This document shows positions 6,760 through 62,340 of a DNA stretch of 64,000 bases, piece after piece; position 1 is the first letter of the stretch; every line of letters starts with the position of its first letter. The notes beneath the pieces are model-generated. The model was not told where the DNA came from, ran no database searches, and saw only the letters and a program-made list of their open reading frames with translations. The stretch covers positions 7,843 to 71,842 of the IMG/VR virus record IMGVR_UViG_3300035204_002103; one strand, given 5' to 3'. Source of the stretch: a virus. The position numbers were made by a program, and so were the translations under genes.

Positions 6760-8246
6760 TACAGGAGCTCTCCGTCATTTTGCGCGGGATCATTTAGGTC
6801 GTGCTGATCTCTTTCTCTGTTTACAATGTCTTGTAATGACCCCACTTCCGTGGCATCAAAATTTCTGACATTAAAATTAAGAAAGTTATTAGTAAACCTA
6901 ACTGTTCCGTCTGGCATGACTCTCCTAACTAAGTCATGGTGCCCAGCCGCATCTCGACCTTGGAACCTTGTTTTTAAGGGGACTAATTTATGAGTACCGA
7001 AGTCTTCTCCGTCTTCGGCAATTTCATCTAACGTTTTTCTTCTAAAGATAGCAACAAATGACGCGAACCATTGAAAACGATCTGATAAGGAAATTGCAGA
7101 ACTGTCGTCAACGACTGCCCCTGCTCTCCTGTTAAAGTTTTCCCCTGATCTGTTCATTTGCATTGCTGTTATAATCGGGCAATTGAGTTCTTCGGCAAGT
7201 TTTTTAAGCTTATCTATTTTATCTCCTATCGCTTGATATTCTGCCCAGTTATTACCAACTTTTTCTCCCGTTAGTTTTATGTAATCGTACCCGAGTATAA
7301 AAGGGTTTCCTCTTCCTATTTCGGAATAGTAAAACCTTCTAACAAAAGAGCAGATTTGATCTATATTTTTGTTTCCTACTGGATAATGATGTATAGACTG
7401 GTCTTTGATTGAGTCGTAAGAACTCCTAACTTTTTCTACTAAGTCAGGGTTCCTTCTCCAGTTTCCTGTTTCTAGGTGCCATAAGGATACTCCTGACTCC
7501 GCAGCAGCAACCCTAAACTTAATGTCCTCCGTGCTCATCTCCGTGTCTAGGATTAGCGTTGGTACATTATGTATTTTTGCTGTTTTTCTACAGACATCAA
7601 GTATCCAAGTAGACTTACCTTGCCCCGGCCTTGCAACTATTCCATATAAATTTCCGGGTCTTAGTCCTCCATATAACCTGTTAAACTCTTCGTAAGGAGT
7701 AGAAAATCCAAAGTCTTCTTGTGGGTTTTCTCCAGTTTGTTCTATTAATTCCGGTAAACCTTCGTAAAGATTCTCTGGATCTTTTTCTGCTACTTCGAAG
7801 TCTCTTATCAGGTCGCCGTAAAGGTGATCTGCTGTAGATATAATTTCATCAACTGCTTTTTCTCCGTTTTCCTTTAAGAATTTTTTGATATCATCACATT
7901 TATGGTACATTCTCCTTCTTACCGTGAGCTTAGCTAGCTCTTTACAGGCCTCGAGAATGCCTTTTTGAGTTATCGTATTAAAGGATATTGCTTCAATGTA
8001 ATCATAAATATCTACATCATCTTTAAATGATATACCTATGTTTTTTATTTTCTCTGCAAGTACAACCGAGTCAATTGTTTCGTTGTTTAAGAAGCAGTTC
8101 CTGAGCACACAGAAGATTGTCTGGTGAACTTCGTTGATAAAGTCCTTCTCTGAAATATATCTCTCTACGTCTGCGAATAATTTAGGGTTCTTAATTAACC
8201 CTCCTAATACATGTTTTTCTATTTTTATTGAATATATCGAATCCAT
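6759..8246 (-). CDS. dnaB: Replicative DnaB-like helicase
   Basis: N-terminal EKHVLG, Walker A ARPGQGKS, DTEM, YDYIKL, QMNR, KTR. Confidence 0.92.
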   Translation of the reverse strand: MDSIYSIKIEKHVLGGLIKNPKLFADVERYISEKDFINEVHQTIFCVLRNCFLNNETIDSVVLAEKIKNIGISFKDDVDIYDYIEAISFNTITQKGILEACKELAKLTVRRRMYHKCDDIKKFLKENGEKAVDEIISTADHLYGDLIRDFEVAEKDPENLYEGLPELIEQTGENPQEDFGFSTPYEEFNRLYGGLRPGNLYGIVARPGQGKSTWILDVCRKTAKIHNVPTLILDTEMSTEDIKFRVAAAESGVSLWHLETGNWRRNPDLVEKVRSSYDSIKDQSIHHYPVGNKNIDQICSFVRRFYYSEIGRGNPFILGYDYIKLTGEKVGNNWAEYQAIGDKIDKLKKLAEELNCPIITAMQMNRSGENFNRRAGAVVDDSSAISLSDRFQWFASFVAIFRRKTLDEIAEDGEDFGTHKLVPLKTRFQGRDAAGHHDLVRRVMPDGTVRFTNNFLNFNVRNFDATEVGSLQDIVNRERDQHDLNDPAQNDGELL

Positions 8247-8583: not shown

Positions 8584-8659
8584 TGGTGGGCGATGAGGGA
8601 TTCGAACCCCCGACCAACGGCGTGTAAAGCCGCTGCGCTAGCCACTGCGCCAATCGCCC
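8584..8659 (-). tRNA. tRNA-Val(UAC)
   Basis: Reverse complement GGGCGAT...GCGGC TT TAC AC GCCGT...GTTCGAATC...ATCGCCCACCA. Confidence 0.95.
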
Positions 8660-16735: not shown

Positions 16736-18016
16736 TTAAATTTCCCTGCCGTGCATGGGAATATCAAACCCCTTCTCTGGAAGCTTAACTAAGTGAACCT
16801 TTGCGAACGTCATGTTGTGAAATTCTTCAAAGTTACTAGGGTAGTAGTTGTCTGCCCTGTTGAGCTGAAATTTAACAGGCGAGCCTATAAGACGGGCAAA
16901 TTCAGATTTAGTATAATACCAGAAACTATTAGTATTCCAAAAGCTAACTAACTGCGGGTCTTGGAAGGCCGCGCGACCATCTGTACTGGGTACATCTATT
17001 ATAGCCCAACCGTAATCAGCGAGACACCTATAAATTTCTTTCATGGTTAATATGGGGTCTTTAAGATAGCCCAAGGCATTCCATGCCCTAAAAACTCCAA
17101 CGGAACCATCTTCGAAAGGCCAGTAGGGGTTGTTTAAATCATAAACCACGCGTTTTTTTTCATCTCGAAAGATTTCTTTATCCACGCCGGTGAAGCCTTC
17201 AGGAAGCGTTTCTCCACTACACAAATCCACTTTACTTAATTGATTCTGGTCTGCCCATTTTGATGCTAGGCCTAGAATATAATTATCATGAATTACGTGA
17301 GTAAGCTTTTGTATTTTTTCATTTTTTTCGTTAGCCGAAGTTCTCTCTGGGTAAGCGTAGTATTTATACAGGGGCTTGTCTATTTTATGGCATGCTCCTA
17401 AAATATATGTTCTGCAAAGAAGTTCGTAGTCATCGCAGACATCTAAAGATTCATCATGCCCACCAATCTTGTCATAGAATTCTTTTTTCCAAGACCTTAC
17501 GTGATCTGGCGAATACCAAATATAAGAAAACGCTAAGGGTGATGGAAGTGGGGTAGGGTGGTATTGATTTCCTTCACTATCTTTTTGCGTTTTCCATCCC
17601 CATTGCGCTGAAAAGGGAGCTATGTGTTTTTCTTTGTTATCCTCTCCTACTTCTATGTAGTAATCATCCGAGTAACAAAAATCATGTCCGCCTTCAAATG
17701 CGATACTTAGCTCTTCTAAACAGTCTGGAGTTAGTGCATCATCGTGGTCTAGTTCTACAAGAATTTCTCCTGATGCGGCATTACAACAAAGTTTTTTTAG
17801 ATATCCTATATTTTTATTCTCTGTTTCGTCTCGTATAATTTTTAAATTTAATTCAGATGCTTGAACTGACGTTAGTAGCTCCTCCTCTTGCTCTAGAGCC
17901 TTTCCGTTTAGCAAAATAACCCACTCAAAATCTTTAAACGATTGATTAAGTAGGCTCTGGAACGGAGTGTCTATACGACTTAAGTCATGAGTTGGTGTGA
18001 ATATTGAAAATTTCAT
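16736..18016 (-). CDS. GT2 glycosyltransferase fused to a methyltransferase-like domain
   Basis: FSIFTPTH, ELDHDD, GGHDE..DDYEL; C-terminal DL.S.E..WPFEDGSV..EIYRCL..DP. Confidence 0.85.
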   Translation of the reverse strand: MKFSIFTPTHDLSRIDTPFQSLLNQSFKDFEWVILLNGKALEQEEELLTSVQASELNLKIIRDETENKNIGYLKKLCCNAASGEILVELDHDDALTPDCLEELSIAFEGGHDFCYSDDYYIEVGEDNKEKHIAPFSAQWGWKTQKDSEGNQYHPTPLPSPLAFSYIWYSPDHVRSWKKEFYDKIGGHDESLDVCDDYELLCRTYILGACHKIDKPLYKYYAYPERTSANEKNEKIQKLTHVIHDNYILGLASKWADQNQLSKVDLCSGETLPEGFTGVDKEIFRDEKKRVVYDLNNPYWPFEDGSVGVFRAWNALGYLKDPILTMKEIYRCLADYGWAIIDVPSTDGRAAFQDPQLVSFWNTNSFWYYTKSEFARLIGSPVKFQLNRADNYYPSNFEEFHNMTFAKVHLVKLPEKGFDIPMHGREI

Positions 18017-18852: not shown

Positions 18853-19488
18853 TTAAATTGAGTCGTAGATCTCTTTTGATTTTAATTTTTTATTTAAAAT
18901 TTTGACTCCTCTTTGGTGGAGGTTTATCGCTGTTTGGGTGCTCGTGTGTATTTTTGAGGCGATGGTGCTCCAAGTAGCTTTTTTTGTGTTCATGCTTTTA
19001 TCGTCAAAGTATCTCAATCTAAAGACTTTTAGTATTCTTTTGTCCTTTAGCTTATTTAGAATATCAAAGACGAAGTCCTTTTCGTCTTTTAAATCGTTTT
19101 CAGAGTCAAAGTCTTGCTTACTTTTATTGGTGAGAAAGGTGTGGATGCACTCATCCTCCATGTCTACAAGTCTATTATTTGAATTAATAAAAGTTAGAAC
19201 GTGATACTTACTACAATTACCAAGCCAAGTAGAAAATTTACATTTTTTATTAGGTTTATAAGATTTTATAGCCCTAAATATTACGAAGTCTTTATCGCTT
19301 AGTAGGTCTTCTTTTCTCAATCCTTTAGCTAAGATTACAGGAATATATTTTTGGCACATTTTATAGAAGAGCTTTTCATGCCTCTCGGAGAGAAGCTGAA
19401 AGCTTTCATTACAACCAGTAGACTTCACTTTTTTTACTAAAGTGTTGTCGCATGGCGTCTTCTTCTTTGTATTTCTTCGTTGAGCCAT
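18853..19488 (-). CDS. Sigma70-family RNA polymerase sigma factor (regions 2 and 4)
   Basis: AIKSYKP.K.CKFSTWL; VFRLRYF...TW..IA HTH. Confidence 0.75.
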   Translation of the reverse strand: MAQRRNTKKKTPCDNTLVKKVKSTGCNESFQLLSERHEKLFYKMCQKYIPVILAKGLRKEDLLSDKDFVIFRAIKSYKPNKKCKFSTWLGNCSKYHVLTFINSNNRLVDMEDECIHTFLTNKSKQDFDSENDLKDEKDFVFDILNKLKDKRILKVFRLRYFDDKSMNTKKATWSTIASKIHTSTQTAINLHQRGVKILNKKLKSKEIYDSI

Positions 19489-20084
19489 TTTGTGAAATTA
19501 TCCACATGCGGAGATAATTCCTCAATTTGACCATTTTTCAAGAATTCCCATTCAATTTGAAAGTTACTTTTTTTCTTAACCTTGGGGTCATTTCTGGCCT
19601 CTTCAGAATTAACTGGCTCCCTGAATTTTTTAGAAAATGGACCTAATTGTGGTTTGTAAAGATTCTCGGAGCAAAGTTCATATTGAGAAACGTGAACCAG
19701 AATTCCATTAAGTTCATCTTGAAGCCAGCTTACTTCATCGTTTTCGTAATCATCATATCTAATGTCCGTTATGACCTTAAAACCATGAAAGGGGTCTGTT
19801 AGAATCTTGTTTTGAAGCTGTTCAATCCAATGTCTTCCTTGTGTGAGTTTTCTCTTGGTTGTCCCGTGAGCTACCAAAAAAGGTCTAATCACTTCCTTTG
19901 TTTCTCTATCGCAATTAACAGAATCTATTTTATAATGTAACTGACACCACTGTTTAACTTCTTTTTTTAATGCGTCAGCAAGTGAGAATTTCTTGCAAGG
20001 CAAAACCTCCGACAACAGGGAAAAGAACGTATCTTTACCTGAGCCAGCCACACCTGAGACTCCTAGGATTATATTATTTTTCAT
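19437..20084 (-). CDS. Deoxynucleoside monophosphate kinase
   Basis: GVAGSGKDT, LADALK, RPFL..HG, ITDIRY..NE. Confidence 0.85.
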   Translation of the reverse strand: MKNNIILGVSGVAGSGKDTFFSLLSEVLPCKKFSLADALKKEVKQWCQLHYKIDSVNCDRETKEVIRPFLVAHGTTKRKLTQGRHWIEQLQNKILTDPFHGFKVITDIRYDDYENDEVSWLQDELNGILVHVSQYELCSENLYKPQLGPFSKKFREPVNSEEARNDPKVKKKSNFQIEWEFLKNGQIEELSPHVDNFTKWLNEEIQRRRRHATTL

Positions 20085-20104
20085 CTTTAGTTTTAATTAT
20101 AACA

Positions 20105-20522
20105 ATCTTCCCAGTGACTGCTTATCCTTTGAATTTTTCCTCTGGGTTGAGAAAGCCCAAGGGGCTTTCGAGATAAGAACATAGCTGTCCACTTGAGACG
20201 AAATATAAAACCTTAACAAACCCGCTTCAGTCCGTCGCGTTAACCACTGTTAGTCTCGCTTGCTGAGTCTGTTAAGCTATATTGGTTTTTTGTTTTAAGC
20301 GGCGGGACTTTTTTTCATGACTGCTTATCCTTTTCCTCTTGGGAGGATTAAGTTTCTAGCTTGGGTATCTCTACCCACATTAGCCTCAACTGCCGCTTTT
20401 TCCCGAAATAACAGCAGACTTATTAGGTCTAGTTGGCTAAGGTCTTTTTACGGGCCTGTGGTCTCTTACGAGTTAATACGGGGCTAACCCCCGAAAGCTA
20501 TTCACCGCTAACAAAGAACTTT
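20105..20522 (-). ncRNA. Candidate structured non-coding element with two tandem modules
   Basis: No credible ORF; many complementary stems; 16-nt direct repeat at 20115-20130 and 20318-20333; promoter-like TTGCTT..TACTCT upstream. Confidence 0.55.
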
Positions 20523-20557
20523 GACTAGAGTAACAAGTTTTTTATTTGAAGCAAGAA

Positions 20558-21154
20558 TTATTTTTTCTTTTTTCCTTTTTTCTTTTTGTCGTCTTCATCT
20601 TCCCCTTCGTCTTTATCCTTGTCTTCCTTTTTTGAATCATCGTATCCCGCATCGAGGAGTTCTTGAAGTATCTTTTGACCGCCGCTAGACTCAAATTCTT
20701 CCATAATATCAGGGTTGCTAATAGCATGAAAATTAGAAATGATTTCTTCTTTCTCTGTTGTTTTTTGTTTATAAAATTGAATGATGTGAATCAAGTTTCT
20801 TATATCTTTATCGCTTACCGCGGAAGCGGTACATAGATCCGTCTTATCCTCAATCAACCCACAAAACTCATTAATTTCTCCAGCAAGCCACTTACTTGTA
20901 AATGCTGTAAGCTCGATGTTTTGATTGTAAGCATCGTACGGTTTATTAAGAATGTAATATTTTTTGTCCCCCCATTCTTGAGAAGCAATCATGGTGTTGT
21001 TTTCTAGATCTAGTAATGCCAGCTTGAACGCAGACAGAGTCTCTTCTTCATGATCTATAATTGGCAAAATTTTCTTAAGGTCTCGGTTCATTTCGAAGCT
21101 GTCGTTTGAACCAAACCATTCATACAGGTGATTTGCGGCGTCTAAAACGGTCAT
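20558..21154 (-). CDS. Hypothetical protein with acidic/basic tail
   Basis: 198-aa ORF. Confidence 0.7.
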   Translation of the reverse strand: MTVLDAANHLYEWFGSNDSFEMNRDLKKILPIIDHEEETLSAFKLALLDLENNTMIASQEWGDKKYYILNKPYDAYNQNIELTAFTSKWLAGEINEFCGLIEDKTDLCTASAVSDKDIRNLIHIIQFYKQKTTEKEEIISNFHAISNPDIMEEFESSGGQKILQELLDAGYDDSKKEDKDKDEGEDEDDKKKKGKKKK

Positions 21155-21213
21155 ATATTTATAATAAAAAAAGGGGTTGACTTTTCAAAAAAACAAACTA
21201 TACTACAAGAAGT

Positions 21214-25595: not shown

Positions 25596-25669
25596 GCGGG
25601 TGTCGTATAATGGTATTACCTTAGCCTTCCAAGCTAATGACGCGAGTTCGATTCTCGCCACCCGCTCCA
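25596..25669 (+). tRNA. tRNA-Gly(UCC)
   Basis: GCGGGTG...TTAGC CT TCC AA GCTAA...GTTCGATTC...CACCCGCTCCA. Confidence 0.95.
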
Positions 25670-25676
25670 TTTTTCT

Positions 25677-25753
25677 GGGGGAGTAGCTCAGTTGGATAGA
25701 GCATCTGTCTTCTAAACAGAGGGTCGTGGGTTCGAGTCCCGCCTTCCCTACCA
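25677..25753 (+). tRNA. tRNA-Arg(UCU)
   Basis: TCTGT CT TCT AA ACAGA anticodon arm, GTTCGAGTC, CCA end. Confidence 0.95.
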
Positions 25754-27444: not shown

Positions 27445-27585
27445 TTTGTGGGGGATTTTTTAAAGTGCTTTACGTACCGGAATTTTGGTACAACCCCATG
27501 CACTGTTGGGCTGCGTTCCCGCGAATGGGTCGCATTTAGTTTTCACCCAGTGTAGATATCAGCAATGGAAGAAACTAATATCTAA
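27445..27585 (-). promoter_or_regulatory. Structured 5' leader upstream of the speD-like gene
   Basis: Nested inverted repeats TAGATATTAGT/GCTGATATCTA, CACTG/CAGTG, TGCG/CGCA, TGGGG/CCCCA, GTACC/GGTAC. Confidence 0.45.
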
Positions 27586-27665
27586 TAAATAATAGCGCCA
27601 ATACAAAAAAATACAAAATTTTTTATTATTGTTTTTTCAAGAAAAATAGCTATAGTTTACATTAA

Positions 27666-27742
27666 CGGGGCGTAGCGCAGTCTGGTAGCGCGCCTGCTTT
27701 GGGAGCAGGATGTCGCAAGTTCGAATCTTGCCGTCCCGACCA
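27666..27742 (+). tRNA. tRNA-Pro(UGG)
   Basis: CCTGC TT TGG GA GCAGG, GTTCGAATC, CCA. Confidence 0.95.
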
Positions 27743-27760
27743 TTAAATGGTCATTCGAGG

Positions 27761-27836
27761 GCCAGAGTAGCTTTAACGGTAGAGCAGCGGTTTTGTAAAC
27801 CGCCGGTTATCGGTTCGAATCCGGTCTCTGGCTCCA
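27761..27836 (+). tRNA. tRNA-Thr(UGU)
   Basis: GCGGT TT TGT AA ACCGC, GGTTCGAATCC, CCA. Confidence 0.95.
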
Positions 27837-27841
27837 AATTT

Positions 27842-27930
27842 GGCGAAGTGGTGGAATTGGTAGACACAACGGACTTAAAATCCGTCGGCCATCAACAGCC
27901 GTGAGGGTTCGAGTCCCTCCTTCGCTACCA
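27842..27930 (+). tRNA. tRNA-Leu(UAA)
   Basis: ACGGA CT TAA AA TCCGT, long variable arm, CCA. Confidence 0.95.
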
Positions 27931-27949
27931 AATAAGTGTAATGATAGAT

Positions 27950-28138
27950 ATGAAATTTTACGAAGTCAAACAGCAATTGAATAATCTGCATTGGCAAACT
28001 CTAGCTTATCTAAGGAACAAAGAAGACGCGGAGAAATACCGAACACTTTATAATACGAAGGTTGTGGTATACCTAACAAAAATTGTAGAGCATGAGTTTG
28101 TAAAACTTAAAGACTTTAAGGATGAGCTTGAAGGTTAA
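27950..28138 (+). CDS. Hypothetical protein
   Basis: Start 14 nt after GTGTAA at 27936. Confidence 0.6.
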   Translation: MKFYEVKQQLNNLHWQTLAYLRNKEDAEKYRTLYNTKVVVYLTKIVEHEFVKLKDFKDELEG

Positions 28139-28261
28139 AAAATGCCCTAAGTGTGGGTGCTATTTCGTGGAAACTAAATTTCAGTGTCCCAGATGTGCGT
28201 GGTGGGTAAAATAATTTTTTATTTGTATATTTTTTTTTCTAAAATAAAAAAACTAATTTTA

Positions 28262-28300
28262 AACCGAACGAAAAAAAACCCCTAAGGTGGACGATATACT
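28262..28300 (+). repeat. Dispersed repeat copy 2, immediately before an ATG
   Basis: AACCGAACGA...CTAAGGTGGACGATATACT-ATG. Confidence 0.8.
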
Positions 28301-28465
28301 ATGAAGAACAATAAACAAAAAAAGTACTTTAAAACAGAGAAGGGTAAAGAAACCCTTAAAAACGCAAGAAAAGCCTATGACGAAAGAGATCCAGAAAGAA
28401 GAAGGAAGCAGAAAAGAGAATATATGAGGAGAAAAAGAGCTAAGAACCCGTTTATTTGGAGGTAA
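28301..28465 (+). CDS. Small highly basic protein
   Basis: Manual translation MKNNKQKKYFKTEKGK...REYMRRKRAKNPFIWR. Confidence 0.55.
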   Translation: MKNNKQKKYFKTEKGKETLKNARKAYDERDPERRRKQKREYMRRKRAKNPFIWR

Positions 28466-28510
28466 TTTTTTTTAGTTATTTTCTTGTACCCTGCGTAAAA
28501 TAATTACGGT

Positions 28511-30351: not shown

Positions 30352-30435
30352 TAAACGTATTATTGTCAGACAAAAAACGTTATCACCCCTCAAGTAAGTT
30401 GGGGGGTATTTTTTTTTATAAGTGTAAGTATATAC

Positions 30436-30618
30436 GTGAGGGAGCTAGTAATGAATGGTCTAAAAGTGAGGCTTACTAAGTATAAGCTTATCATTTACGA
30501 GGAGGTAGACAAGGAAGTCAGTGATCACGAGGCTCAAGTAATTGCTCAGTATCTGTACCAAGAAGGTTTTATAAAAAAAGATGAATTTCCTGTAGAAATT
30601 CTGAGAATCGAAGACTAA
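30436..30618 (+). CDS. Hypothetical protein
   Basis: GTG start 14 nt after GTGTAA at 30422. Confidence 0.6.
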   Translation: MRELVMNGLKVRLTKYKLIIYEEVDKEVSDHEAQVIAQYLYQEGFIKKDEFPVEILRIED

Positions 30619-30788
30619 TATAAATAAAGACTAACACACATGAGGAAAAGCGAAAAATGTTACAGGATCGTAGACAAAAATTCTAAGATGCTTCATGGAG
30701 CGTTTCCCAAGACGGAAGAAGGGAAAAAAAGGGCTGAAAAATACCTTAAAAAAATAAATAAAGACAAGAACTTAGAGATAGTTATAAA

Positions 30789-31028
30789 ATGAAAAGAGAA
30801 CTCAACAACCATCTTAGATTGCTTAAAGAAAGCATTGATTGGTGGAAGGAAGAAAGCCTCAAGACAGAAATTGAGGTTGAGGAAATCAATACAGAATTCG
30901 AGAAAGGCTTAATAAGCGAAACAGAAGTTATTGACAGACTCACTGAGATTAGCAATAAAATAGATTACCTTTATCGCAAAGGCGAATACGAAAAAAGAAA
31001 TCTTTTTAATGTTATTCAGCATCATTAA
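30789..31028 (+). CDS. Hypothetical protein
   Basis: ORF in run. Confidence 0.55.
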   Translation: MKRELNNHLRLLKESIDWWKEESLKTEIEVEEINTEFEKGLISETEVIDRLTEISNKIDYLYRKGEYEKRNLFNVIQHH

Positions 31029-38531: not shown

Positions 38532-38560
38532 AATAATTTTGCTGGTTGATCACCAGCAAA

Positions 38561-38724
38561 GGGTGTGACTGAATAAACTGCTGTCGCGGCAGTTAAGGTA
38601 CAGGGCTTGTAGGCAGGAGATCACCGTCTCTGGGGGCTTACAAGGGCTGGTTCAAAGTAGGGTTTCTCACGAAACTCAAGCTGTGACCCCGAAACGATGG
38701 AGGTAAATGAGATTCCTCCCACCC
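38561..38724 (+). ncRNA. Candidate structured RNA (possibly manA-motif-like)
   Basis: GGGTG/CACCC closing stem; internal AACTGC/GCAGTT, CTTGTAGGC/GCTTACAAG, GGGTTTC/GAAACTC and GGAGG/CCTCC stems; begins GTGTGACTGAATAA. Confidence 0.6.
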
Positions 38725-38816
38725 ATTAATTTTGAAACTGAGCGGATAGCGATAGGTGATTAATATAGATTCTTCATAGATAGCCTTACGCCGTGACCCT
38801 CTCTTTTTCAACCTAA

Positions 38817-39927: not shown

Positions 39928-39932
39928 TTTTT

Positions 39933-40136
39933 ATGAAACTAGAACTAATAAGGCAATTGCCTCACGATGATGATACGTTAGAGCTTCTTTTTGAAGTAGA
40001 CCAAGAGTTATTTGAGGTTTATAGATCGGAAACAGGTGATGACGAATTTGACCAAGATTCATTTAACGAATGGATTAATGATTTAATAAAATATGCCGTG
40101 GAAGGAGAAAATTTAATAGATTACGATGAAGGATGA
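39933..40136 (+). CDS. Hypothetical acidic protein
   Basis: ORF in run. Confidence 0.55.
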   Translation: MKLELIRQLPHDDDTLELLFEVDQELFEVYRSETGDDEFDQDSFNEWINDLIKYAVEGENLIDYDEG

Positions 40137-40295
40137 ATTCAAAAAAATAATCGAAGAAACGCTGGCGGAAAAGAATTTTTCTCAAGCGAACATAGGCTCA
40201 CAAGCTTGTCGTGAGATTTTAGCAGAAGAAATAGAGAAGAATATAAAAGCTAAATTTCATATTTTTAGGATAAACAGGCTAATAACGGGAGACTA

Positions 40296-40526
40296 ATGAA
40301 TCAACGAGAGAGAGACTTAAGGAAGGCTGCCGAAGAATGTAGCGAGTTGGCGACAGTTCTTATTCAGCAACTTAATAAACCCCATAAAGACCTTAATAAT
40401 CACATTATTGAAGAAATAGGGGACGTTTTGTTTAGGCTTGAAAACTTAAGAAAACATTTTGATTTCCAAGCTGTATCGGATAGAATAGAACTAAAGAGGC
40501 AAAAGTATAATGAAAGGAGTAAATAA
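40296..40526 (+). CDS. MazG-like NTP pyrophosphohydrolase
   Basis: EECSEL...EEIGDV. Confidence 0.7.
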   Translation: MNQRERDLRKAAEECSELATVLIQQLNKPHKDLNNHIIEEIGDVLFRLENLRKHFDFQAVSDRIELKRQKYNERSK

Positions 40527-61634: not shown

Positions 61635-61829
61635 ATGAAAAATAACAGAATAAGATTGGAGAGAAACGACCTAGATAATGTGGCGTTAGTGTTAGATAAG
61701 GCAAACGAACATGGTATGGCGGCAGAAGTTATGTATAGTGCGCTTACAATGGCAGCAGAAGCAAATGAGCATGGACTCTCAATGAGAGAAGTGCTAGATG
61801 CGGCGTTAGGAGAGTGGGACATTAATTAA
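61635..61829 (+). CDS. Hypothetical protein
   Basis: ANEHG internal repeat. Confidence 0.6.
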   Translation: MKNNRIRLERNDLDNVALVLDKANEHGMAAEVMYSALTMAAEANEHGLSMREVLDAALGEWDIN

Positions 61830-61845
61830 ACTCGGAGTAAATAAA

Positions 61846-62055
61846 ATGCAAAAATTAATAAATAACTGGCAAGGATTGTTAATGTGGTTTGGGATTATTC
61901 TGATTATCTTTCTATTATTTGGTTGCGCTTCAAACAAGCAAACACCAAATAACGAGTGGGATGACCAGCGTTTTTTCGATCTTCTACATCTGGAGCAGAA
62001 CATTGTTCGCAAGAGCATTACGATTAAAGACTATACAATTAAAGAGGAGTGTTAA
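61846..62055 (+). CDS. Small lipoprotein
   Basis: LLFGC lipobox-like signal. Confidence 0.5.
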   Translation: MQKLINNWQGLLMWFGIILIIFLLFGCASNKQTPNNEWDDQRFFDLLHLEQNIVRKSITIKDYTIKEEC

Positions 62056-62305
62056 ATGCAGGAAATATTTTTAATTATTTATTTGAGTATTGTGTTAATG
62101 ATACCAGTGTTGATTACGACAGCTTTGTTAATGATTTTCTTATCTCTAATTTCCTTAATTAAGGGGAGATAAACAATTTTGTACCCTCTGGACGCACAAC
62201 ATACATCGCCTAATTCTCTTGGGTTTAGTGGTAATAGGTTGGGTTGCAAGAGAAAAGGATAAAAAAGATGGCCGATGAGGGTACAAAACTTTTTTGAAAA
62301 AACCT

Positions 62306-62340
62306 CTTGACTTTCTTAAAAAACCTGTTATATTAGTAGT
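62306..62340 (+). promoter_or_regulatory. Sigma70-like promoter abutting ATG
   Basis: CTTGACTTTCTTAAAAAACCTGTTATATTAGTAGT-ATG. Confidence 0.8.

Follow-up and report, generated by a model that had tools for sequence, protein, structure and literature searches.

The window analysed here is a stretch of 64,000 nucleotides (nt) of viral DNA, positions 7,843 to 71,842 of the IMG/VR virus record IMGVR_UViG_3300035204_002103, which is 71.8 kb long and rated 46% complete. Comparison with related loci shows that its minus strand carries a predicted gene for a non-coding RNA of about 406 nt, with a conserved sigma-70-type promoter-like site at a fixed distance, and that, throughout a single lineage of uncultured marine phages, selection has maintained its elaborate fold. 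The RNA is placed at 20115-20520 (minus strand, 406 nt), bounded by the conserved AGUUCUUUG on one side and on the other by the close of the second of two identical strands, termed twin strands below; the element is present once in the record. It lies in a stretch of 473 nt (20085-20557) that is poor in open reading frames (ORFs), between two minus-strand ORFs (19437-20084 and 20558-21154). This gap very probably encodes a real folded non-coding RNA. Belonging to uncultured marine phages, it apparently represents a family of large structured RNA that has not been described before. An earlier reading of the window, here called the first-pass annotation, had proposed at this place a large structured non-coding RNA matching nothing known, and covariation throughout the fold together with the lack of any match in Rfam 15 bears it out. 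Its further description as a tandem ribozyme or aptamer does not stand as worded: a long-range pairing that covaries unites the two halves in one fold, and the likeness between them is confined to their 3' ends.

The homologs were collected in several ways. A search based on the kinase encoded downstream of the element gave 12 viral loci, and blastn detected the element in 10 of these, nine at 83-87% identity across 429-471 nt and one as a distant copy. At the kinase locus L005 the contig end cuts off the region; in L013, a phage contig with a 40%-identical kinase, an ORF abuts the kinase and leaves no space for the RNA. Patterns made from conserved blocks found 20 and 23 viral places and 47 metagenome places. 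The pattern total, window included, is 71 places, 58 of them full length, with 46 distinct sequences in four subgroups: A (28, including the window), B (7), C (6) and D (5). A second pattern, taken from domain 2 of the RNA (see below), gave four true new places (L087, L088, L089 and L091) and three by chance. L087 and L091 are cut copies; with the outliers L088 and L089 added, the set holds 48 distinct full-length homologs, with an RNA length of 359-419 nt. Looser DNA patterns gave 3 and 7 new places, all by chance. In GenBank phages, blastn of the element gave no match, nor did the sigma-like and upstream proteins encoded beside it, and the helicase matched only below 30% identity. Among prokaryotes (one genome each, 185,579 species) the first short pattern was found at 0 places and the second at 36, none with any of three companion motifs; the scan consisted of two short patterns and not of a profile search, and distant copies may escape it. 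Public DNA runs holding at least one quarter of the sampled words are labelled as seawater or marine plankton metagenomes. As far as searched, the RNA appears to be confined to one lineage of uncultured marine phages.

The case for an RNA fold was built from these homologs. Folds were computed with RNAalifold for each subgroup on MAFFT alignments, and the helices were matched between subgroups by eye. The resulting model was counted on a MAFFT alignment of the 46 homologs (alignment A2) and comprises 21 helices, 110 pairs and 4558 cells. Standard pairs occupy 89.9% of the 4558 cells, against 37.5-47.4% when the partners are slid by 1-3 columns. The number of pairs altered on both sides is 56 of 110 in the model and 14-25 when slid, and the covariation score is 0.294, against at most 0.104. 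This control is somewhat flattered, since the model came from these same sequences. None of 500 column shuffles equalled the model in percentage paired, in both-side count or in covariation score; the number of further pair types did not exceed the column shuffles (reached by 327 of 500). RNAalifold applied to a 15-sequence subset of domain 1 independently finds helices P1b, P5, P4 and P6, with 13 of 26 pairs changed on both sides. For helix P9 and the M2 helix the basis is the folding of each subgroup together with the count over 46 homologs. G-U cells number 435 and A-C cells 122, an excess which identifies the minus strand as the RNA strand, as the first-pass annotation had it; 89.9% of the model cells are paired when the minus strand is read and 83.1% on the opposite strand. 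Within subgroup A the mean identity to the window is 87.5% for the RNA at nucleotide level, 69.8% for the kinase DNA and 65.3% for the upstream ORF. Whole hairpins are gained or lost between the subgroups in alignment A2. The homolog collection and the covariation count had been suggested as checks together with the first-pass annotation, and with 56 of 110 pairs changed on both sides their outcome favours the proposed RNA.

A further suggested check was a search with cmscan, and it returned no family at gathering score or at E up to 10. The Rfam 15 set used holds 4227 models, including GOLLD, ROOL, OLE, RNase P, tmRNA, group I and II introns, 6S, riboswitches and small ribozymes. At gathering score the scan of the whole window found nothing in the element; the matches elsewhere are six transfer RNAs (tRNAs) and a manA RNA. 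The permissive scan of 19800-20800 (E up to 10) gave three noise matches of 14-20 bits, with cut-offs of 65-117. Four divergent homolog loci scanned at E up to 5 gave on the element only one match, of 23.6 bits with a cut-off of 44. As side observations, the tRNA genes lie in clusters at 25596-25750 and 27666-27927 (plus strand) and singly at 8587-8659 (minus strand), and the manA RNA (Rfam RF01745) lies at 38540-38729 (plus strand) with 60.8 bits and a gathering score of 55.2. The manA RNA is a known cis-regulatory motif of phage and marine origin.

The RNA is described below on the minus strand, and RNA positions are counted from 20520 downward. Domain 1 (20285-20519, RNA positions 1-237) is closed by helix P1, in which P1a joins 20519-20510 with 20294-20285 (both-side changes in 8 of 10 pairs) and P1b joins 20509-20503 with 20304-20298 (3 of 7 pairs, in agreement with RNAalifold). 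The core of the domain (20380-20498) contains helices P2 to P6. P5 (20440-20435 with 20385-20380) is changed on both sides in 6 of 6 pairs and encloses the P4 hairpin and P6. The P4 hairpin (20430-20416) has a conserved 7-nt loop, CYAAUAA, and both-side changes in 3 of 4 pairs; P6 (20414-20411 with 20393-20390) has them in 2 of 4. P2 joins 20498-20494 with 20399-20395. Four of its five pairs are changed on both sides; where the window has GCUUU/AAAGC, subgroups B and C have GCGCG/CGCGC and subgroup D has UCGUG/CACGA. P3 (20454-20451 with 20405-20402) is CCCG/CGGG, invariant in the 46 homologs, and becomes UCCG/CGGA in the outlier L088, where both sides are changed. Since the loop of P6 pairs with two strands 5' of P5, forming P2 and P3, the core is a predicted pseudoknot, and both of its sides covary (P2 in 4 of 5 pairs, P5 in 6 of 6). 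The longest invariant unpaired runs lie around the core and read GCCCGU.AAAAG and GUUAYU.CGGG. Hairpin P2.1 (20479-20493) is present only in subgroup A, L088 and L089; it has both-side changes in 3 of 5 pairs and 100% of cells paired in the 28 sequences that carry it. The variable hairpin P7 (20362-20377, UGGGUA/UACCCA) has both-side changes in 5 of 6 pairs, is missing from B and C, and is replaced by a different hairpin in D. Domain 1 runs out in module end M1 (20318-20360), with the 5' strand GCUAGAAACUU, a hairpin CCUC/GAGG, a run of A and the first twin strand; its three helices have both-side changes in 2 of 3, 0 of 3 and 3 of 4 pairs. The core may also be joined to the first twin strand by a GAC/GUC contact, which is invariant in A, B and C and absent in four of five D sequences.

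The two domains are tied by the pairing PK2. Its 5' strand AGUCC (20305-20309) lies just 5' of the closing strand of P1, and its 3' strand GGACU (20229-20233) lies in the conserved loop GCGAMGRACUGAAG of domain 2. All five base pairs are formed in 100% of cells, and one of them is CG in 31 homologs, UA in 14 and UG in 1, with zero mismatches. This covarying link makes the two halves one fold. The stem of domain 2 is P9 (20276-20262 with 20225-20212, region 20212-20276), which has both-side changes in 10 of 14 pairs and is found in all four subgroups with sequences unrelated between them. Inside it lie P10 (both-side changes in 1 of 3 pairs) and hairpin P11 (20259-20237; 2 of 4 pairs). Subgroup C has an insertion of about 45 nt in domain 2. 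Module end M2 (20115-20189) begins with the 5' strand GACAGCUAUGUUCUU, which pairs with the second twin copy, and encloses two hairpins: P13, which is formed by GAAAGCCC/GGGCUUUC and restricted to subgroup A, and a small one with GGAAAAA after it.

Several elements of this model had been read from the window alone in the first-pass annotation. Five of its stems hold on the 46 homologs: UUUGUU-AGCGG/CCGCU-AACAAA (now P1), 20265-20276/20212-20223 (P9), UUAGCC/GGCUAA (P5), UGGGUA/UACCCA (P7) and the pairing now called P13, the last in subgroup A only. Others failed on comparison. The UAGCU/AGCUA pairing of its module 1 is formed in 79.5% of cells, and four of its five pairs depart only by unpaired cells; the GCU of this UAGCU pairs instead with AAAGC in a hairpin loop, as P2. 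The corresponding UAGCU/AGCUA of module 2 is 68.4% paired and a GAGAC/GUCUC pseudoknot 54.6%; like the module 1 stem, both are broken in other subgroups without compensation. The CUUA(A)UC/GGAUAAG stem survives (87.2% and 81.2% paired), but the module-end helices can also be drawn in a second register, GCU/AGC plus CUU/AAG. Both registers score well, and the second is provisionally preferred because CCUC/GAGG covaries and because the change of GCU to UCC or CCAG tracks the 3' strand. The view of the element as two tandem homologous modules is right for the two module ends at the 3' ends of the halves and not for their cores, which are unlike.

The window contains, as had been noted, an exact 16-mer at 20115-20130 and 20318-20333, with the copies 203 nt apart. 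The end unit of each domain consists of a 5' strand, a short hairpin, GGAAAA and a 3' strand, and in 48 of 48 homologs both 3' strands carry an identical string of 13-16 nt, as compared with a longest shared string of 9 nt in 249 control windows from the same RNAs. Nine versions of the core of this string occur across the lineages: GGAUAAGCAG in most of subgroup A, GGCAAGCAG in L026 and L088, GGCUGACAG in L089, GCUGGGAG, GGCGGGAG and GGUAGGAG in B, GCUAGGAG and GCUAAGAG in C, and GGAAGGCUGG in D. As the copies always match, both must have changed in step at least eight times. At some positions the 5' partner in the first unit covaries (GCU to UCC to CCAG), as does that in the second (G-C to C-G and A·A to U-A). 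Independent helices need no identical strands, and the two copies would therefore share one partner. This partner could be strand b in the second unit, which would pair now with one copy and now with the other, a further molecule of the RNA, or a single protein or nuclease. Apart from the twin 16-mer and short A/T-rich words, 20000-20650 showed no repeats.

A sigma-70-type promoter-like site lies at 20527-20554 (minus strand), with TTGCTT at 20554-20549, a 16-nt spacer and TACTCT at 20532-20527; it stops 6 nt before the conserved start of the RNA. This TTGCTT..TACTCT was already marked in the first-pass annotation, and it sits where nearly all homologs carry TTGnnn, 16-17 nt and TAnnCT, ending 6-7 nt before AGUUCUUU. 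The promoter score is at least 9 of 12 in 17 of 46 homologs, as compared with 3% of 920 random control places. The next gene has an extended -10-like site of its own, TGTTATAAT (20096-20104, minus strand, read from 20104 to 20096), outside the RNA and ahead of the kinase ORF, likewise as annotated before. A scan of the window between the RNA and the kinase ORF found no terminator-like site on the minus strand.

The gene order is upstream ORF, RNA, zero to three inserted features, kinase and sigma-like gene. In 40 of 46 homologs, namely all of A, B and D and no C, there is a kinase homolog no more than 1.2 kb downstream. In subgroup C two or three ORFs precede the kinase (819-2239 in L035, 5606-7170 in L028), which look glycosyltransferase-like by eye. 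In L089 a tRNA-Gly(GCC) gene (1310-1385) lies between RNA and kinase, 14 nt past the last conserved base of the RNA. Promoter-like sites (score at least 9 of 12) before the next ORF were found in 11 of 28 sequences of subgroup A, 0 of 7 of B, where the ORF starts 13-43 nt away, 5 of 6 of C, 0 of 5 of D and both outliers (L088 and L089), a total of 18 of 48. At least six consecutive U stand within 12 nt of the last helix in 4 of 48, all four among the five D sequences (A 0 of 28, B 0 of 7, C 0 of 6, outliers 0 of 2).

Contigs from four RNA-library runs, belonging to four studies, align to the element at 85-99% likeness. At 85% likeness no RNA-library contig was found on the flanking ORFs, as is expected from their lower conservation. 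The contig of run X18 is unbroken from 20172 to 20521 across the first twin strand; an inverted piece is attached at 20521 and adapter-like letters stand at the opposite end, and no transcript end is inferred from it. Two oligo-dT contigs end at 20319-20334 beside the A-run, and internal priming would account for this stop.

The 473-nt stretch has a guanine plus cytosine (GC) content of 43.8%, richer than that of the flanking ORFs (37.0% and 36.7%), as had been claimed. Described as the largest ORF-free gap of the window, it in fact ranks fifth when ORFs of at least 80 amino acids are counted and eighth when at least 100 are required. Short ORFs of 40 amino acids (minus strand) and 56-68 amino acids (plus strand) run across the element. 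Other long stretches without an ORF of at least 80 amino acids lie at 30352-31008, 39928-40509, 61823-62340 and 27504-28510, the last with tRNAs. The kinase ORF (19437-20084, minus strand, 215 amino acids) is assigned to the T4-type deoxynucleoside monophosphate (dNMP) kinases by PHROG 139, with weak Pfam matches. Directly downstream, and sharing 52 nt with the kinase ORF as listed, is a sigma-70-family protein (18853-19488, minus strand) that matches Pfam Sigma70_r2 and scores 39.2 bits with NCBIfam sigma70-ECF, under the cut-off of 42.9. A sigma-like gene also follows the kinase in L028, L035 and L089. Other neighbours encode the large subunit of ribonucleotide reductase, a DnaB-like helicase, a UvsX-like recombinase, a ligase and a dCMP deaminase. 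Further downstream of the element lies an ORF (16736-18016) combining glycosyltransferase-2 and methyltransferase. The upstream ORF (20558-21154, minus strand) encodes 198 amino acids with a tail that is acidic and then lysine-rich. No family was matched to this protein in Pfam, PHROG, NCBIfam or PADLOC, and it reached only low scores in Atlas (0.78). At 38 of 46 loci a homolog of it lies upstream of the RNA; of the remaining loci, the majority either have too little sequence on that side to judge or belong to subgroup C. A role for this protein as partner of the RNA was considered and dropped, as evidence is lacking. The six neighbouring proteins gave no PADLOC match and only sigma-factor matches in NCBIfam, and the library scans found no toxin, nuclease, reverse transcriptase, defence or known RNA-binding family among them. 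The gene direction changes near 21.2 kb, in line with the strand switch reported before, and back-to-back promoter-like sites, TTGAAA..TATTAT (minus strand) and TTGACT..TATACT (plus strand), lie at the divergence point (21161-21204).

The constant position of the RNA invites a reading as a cis-acting leader, that is, a very large riboswitch or attenuator for the downstream operon of dNMP kinase, sigma factor and nucleotide metabolism. This reading is considered unlikely, yet not far-fetched. Domain 1 would sense a ligand or factor, and the strands a, twin, b and twin would act like attenuator segments 1 to 4, after the four-segment terminator/antiterminator designs that exist among riboswitch and attenuator leaders. 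Strand b is able to pair with either twin copy, and this ability would keep the copies identical, as they are in 48 of 48 homologs. The RNA invariably precedes one and the same gene block and shares its direction, with the kinase homolog within 1.2 kb in 40 of 46; in subgroup C the kinase still comes, after the two or three inserted ORFs. The close and promoter-less ORF of all seven B sequences, the run of seven U directly after the last helix in four of five D sequences, and the conserved core with its invariant unpaired bases also suit a leader. It is at odds with this reading that a U-run follows the RNA in 4 of 48 homologs only, that no sequestering of a ribosome site was seen in the downstream sequences inspected, that 18 of 48 have a separate promoter-like site for the next gene, and that the next feature can be a tRNA or an unrelated ORF. 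Pairing of strand b with the first twin copy would moreover cross helix P1 and span about 130 nt. The RNA, which measures 360-420 nt and includes another conserved domain, exceeds the general size of riboswitches two- to fivefold, and no Rfam riboswitch family matches it.

The twin strand could also be the shared processing or protein-binding signal of a precursor that is cut into two pieces, with PK2 holding the halves together. Such a signal would suit the identical string of 13-16 nt with which both halves close in all 48 homologs, and whose nine core versions the duplex test (see below) does not explain by internal 5' partners; PK2 could keep the pieces joined. This reading is nevertheless improbable: the X18 contig is unbroken through the first twin strand, from 20172 to 20521, and the six neighbouring proteins include no nuclease or known RNA-binding family. 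Decidedly improbable is a replication-origin transcript that would prime or open the DNA near the divergence of the gene blocks, an alternative raised in the first-pass annotation. The strand switch and the divergent pair of promoter-like sites (21161-21204) are 0.6-1.1 kb away from the element, genes for replication and nucleotide metabolism are close by, an AT-rich stretch follows the RNA in subgroup A, and the cumulative GC skew, proposed as a check, does have a minimum at about 20.8-21.1 kb. This minimum coincides with the switch of gene direction, which alone yields the same signal, and the skew covers the window only, which is part of a record rated 46% complete. The region 20000-20650 lacks repeats beyond the twin 16-mer, and compensatory changes, G-U asymmetry and pseudoknots denote selection on a compact RNA fold, which priming alone would not need. 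Hardly credible, finally, is the absence of any functional RNA, the element being a DNA-level site or a missed small protein gene. Short ORFs do overlap it (40 amino acids on the minus strand, 56-68 on the plus strand), but the changes among homologs preserve base pairs, with G-U on one strand only; whole hairpins are inserted or deleted between subgroups; and the small AUG frame at RNA positions 203-226 of the window is missing in most homologs.

The reading preferred over these is a self-contained folded RNA and not a leader tuned to one gene, although the judgement is evenly balanced. What comes next depends on the lineage: subgroups A, B and D have the kinase ORF, C has glycosyltransferase-like ORFs and L089 has a tRNA; separate promoter-like sites come after the RNA in 18 of 48 homologs, and a U-run in four of five D sequences. 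This diversity fits a self-contained RNA gene travelling at the head of an early gene block and fits less well with a leader tuned to a single gene. The single occurrence of the element in the record likewise favours a self-contained unit. The RNA is likely to be standalone; in 7 of 48 homologs the next ORF follows 13-43 nt on with no promoter-like site between. The promoter, and the neighbouring genes for dNMP kinase and a phage sigma factor, suggest that the host polymerase would make the RNA early. It would then act as a self-contained folded particle, with the pseudoknotted core as a putative binding or catalytic centre. Its release from longer transcripts may fall to the lineage-specific follower, which would be a U-run in some lineages, a tRNA in others, or just the next promoter. 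The twin strands would imply one shared partner, met through strand exchange from unit to unit, pairing between RNA copies, or a sequence-specific protein or nuclease.

Several results weigh against this account. Folding of the single sequence gave -115.8 kcal/mol for the minus strand (z = -1.43, with 8 of 100 shuffles as good) and z = -0.79 for the plus strand (18 of 100), no better than chance, and the case therefore rests on the comparison of homologs. RNAalifold on a mixed 14-sequence alignment of domain 2 finds P10 and P11 only, with 6 pairs, and the M2 helix is weaker than the others, at 85.8% paired with a both-side change in only 1 of 13 pairs. The duplex-energy test gave a cognate mean of -5.7 and a non-cognate mean of -5.3 kcal/mol for the M1 partner, and -10.5 and -9.3 kcal/mol for the M2 partner; cognate ranks are scattered, with no clear preference for the own partner. 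Given this result, pairing with the 5' strands is not claimed as the explanation of the twin-strand changes. The extent given for the RNA is that of its conserved part. In all seven sequences of subgroup B the near ORF and the lack of a promoter-like site make the RNA part of the kinase transcript. The RNA-library contigs are assemblies and show neither a discrete RNA nor expression level, ends or strand; three of them continue past the two ends of the element into sequence unlike the window, at 20520, 20092 and 20069, and thus carry no information on transcript ends. No specific activity is indicated by any result.

It is tentatively considered possible that the RNA belongs to a new class of large phage RNA with its own activity, as a ribozyme, a multi-state switch or a self-assembling particle. 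If so, the double-pseudoknotted invariant core would be the active centre, and the twin strands would be moving or joining parts for one partner, by strand exchange within the RNA, between copies, or with a co-evolving factor. Few bacterial or phage RNAs are equally long and intricate, and those with known roles are ribozymes, guides and scaffolds. The present RNA would add a compact case of about 400 nt from abundant uncultured marine phages, with 48 diverse sequences, a model of two domains and covariation in two pseudoknot pairings. Its pair of identical strands, changing in step, is unusual; this pair points to a shared partner and offers an immediate experimental handle, and the RNA can be studied in vitro without phage culture.

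Among known systems, the RNA resembles riboswitch and attenuator leaders in its place at the 5' end of an operon, its direction, its conserved pseudoknot core and its invariant unpaired bases, and attenuators in having two identical strands that could compete for one partner. Unlike such leaders, it has a varied downstream feature and a second domain tied by long-range pairing; masking of the ribosome site was not seen, and a terminator-like U-run, the other form of attenuator expression platform, is confined to 4 of 48 homologs. The phi29-type packaging RNA is a structural phage RNA with its own promoter, copies of which pair via covarying loops. The new RNA has no Rfam match to it, is roughly threefold longer, comes from a different phage type, and has no identified packaging genes adjoining it. 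Repeat-RNA systems (type III toxin-antitoxin, CRISPR-like arrays) are also distinct, as the present RNA has just two copies of 13-16 nt, and the six neighbouring proteins gave no match to a cognate nuclease. A literature search found no account of the RNA; the supplements of PMC10690425, which possibly list a fragment, lay outside that search. PMC10690425 describes 'DNAVirus_X' candidate structured RNAs of 29-151 bases mined from IMG/VR, which likewise stem from viral contigs and have intergenic covariation evidence; given their size, at most a fragment of the 406-nt RNA would be among them. The nearest kind is GOLLD and ROOL, though the new RNA matches neither profile. According to PMC12286853, recent work has revealed that GOLLD and ROOL assemble into cages made of RNA only, the length of many GOLLD RNAs is above 800 nt, and large ornate RNAs often adjoin tRNA islands. 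At 359-419 nt the new RNA is smaller, and 47 of its 48 copies are not beside a tRNA, that of L089 alone directly preceding one; in the window the nearest tRNAs lie at 25596 and 8659, the closer about 5 kb off. It differs further in its fixed place before the kinase and sigma-factor block and in carrying the twin strand. With GOLLD and ROOL, as that source presents them, it shares a phage origin (a virus record with phage-type neighbours), a length of several hundred nt, no known protein partner, and a covarying fold with several pseudoknot helices, here P2 and PK2.

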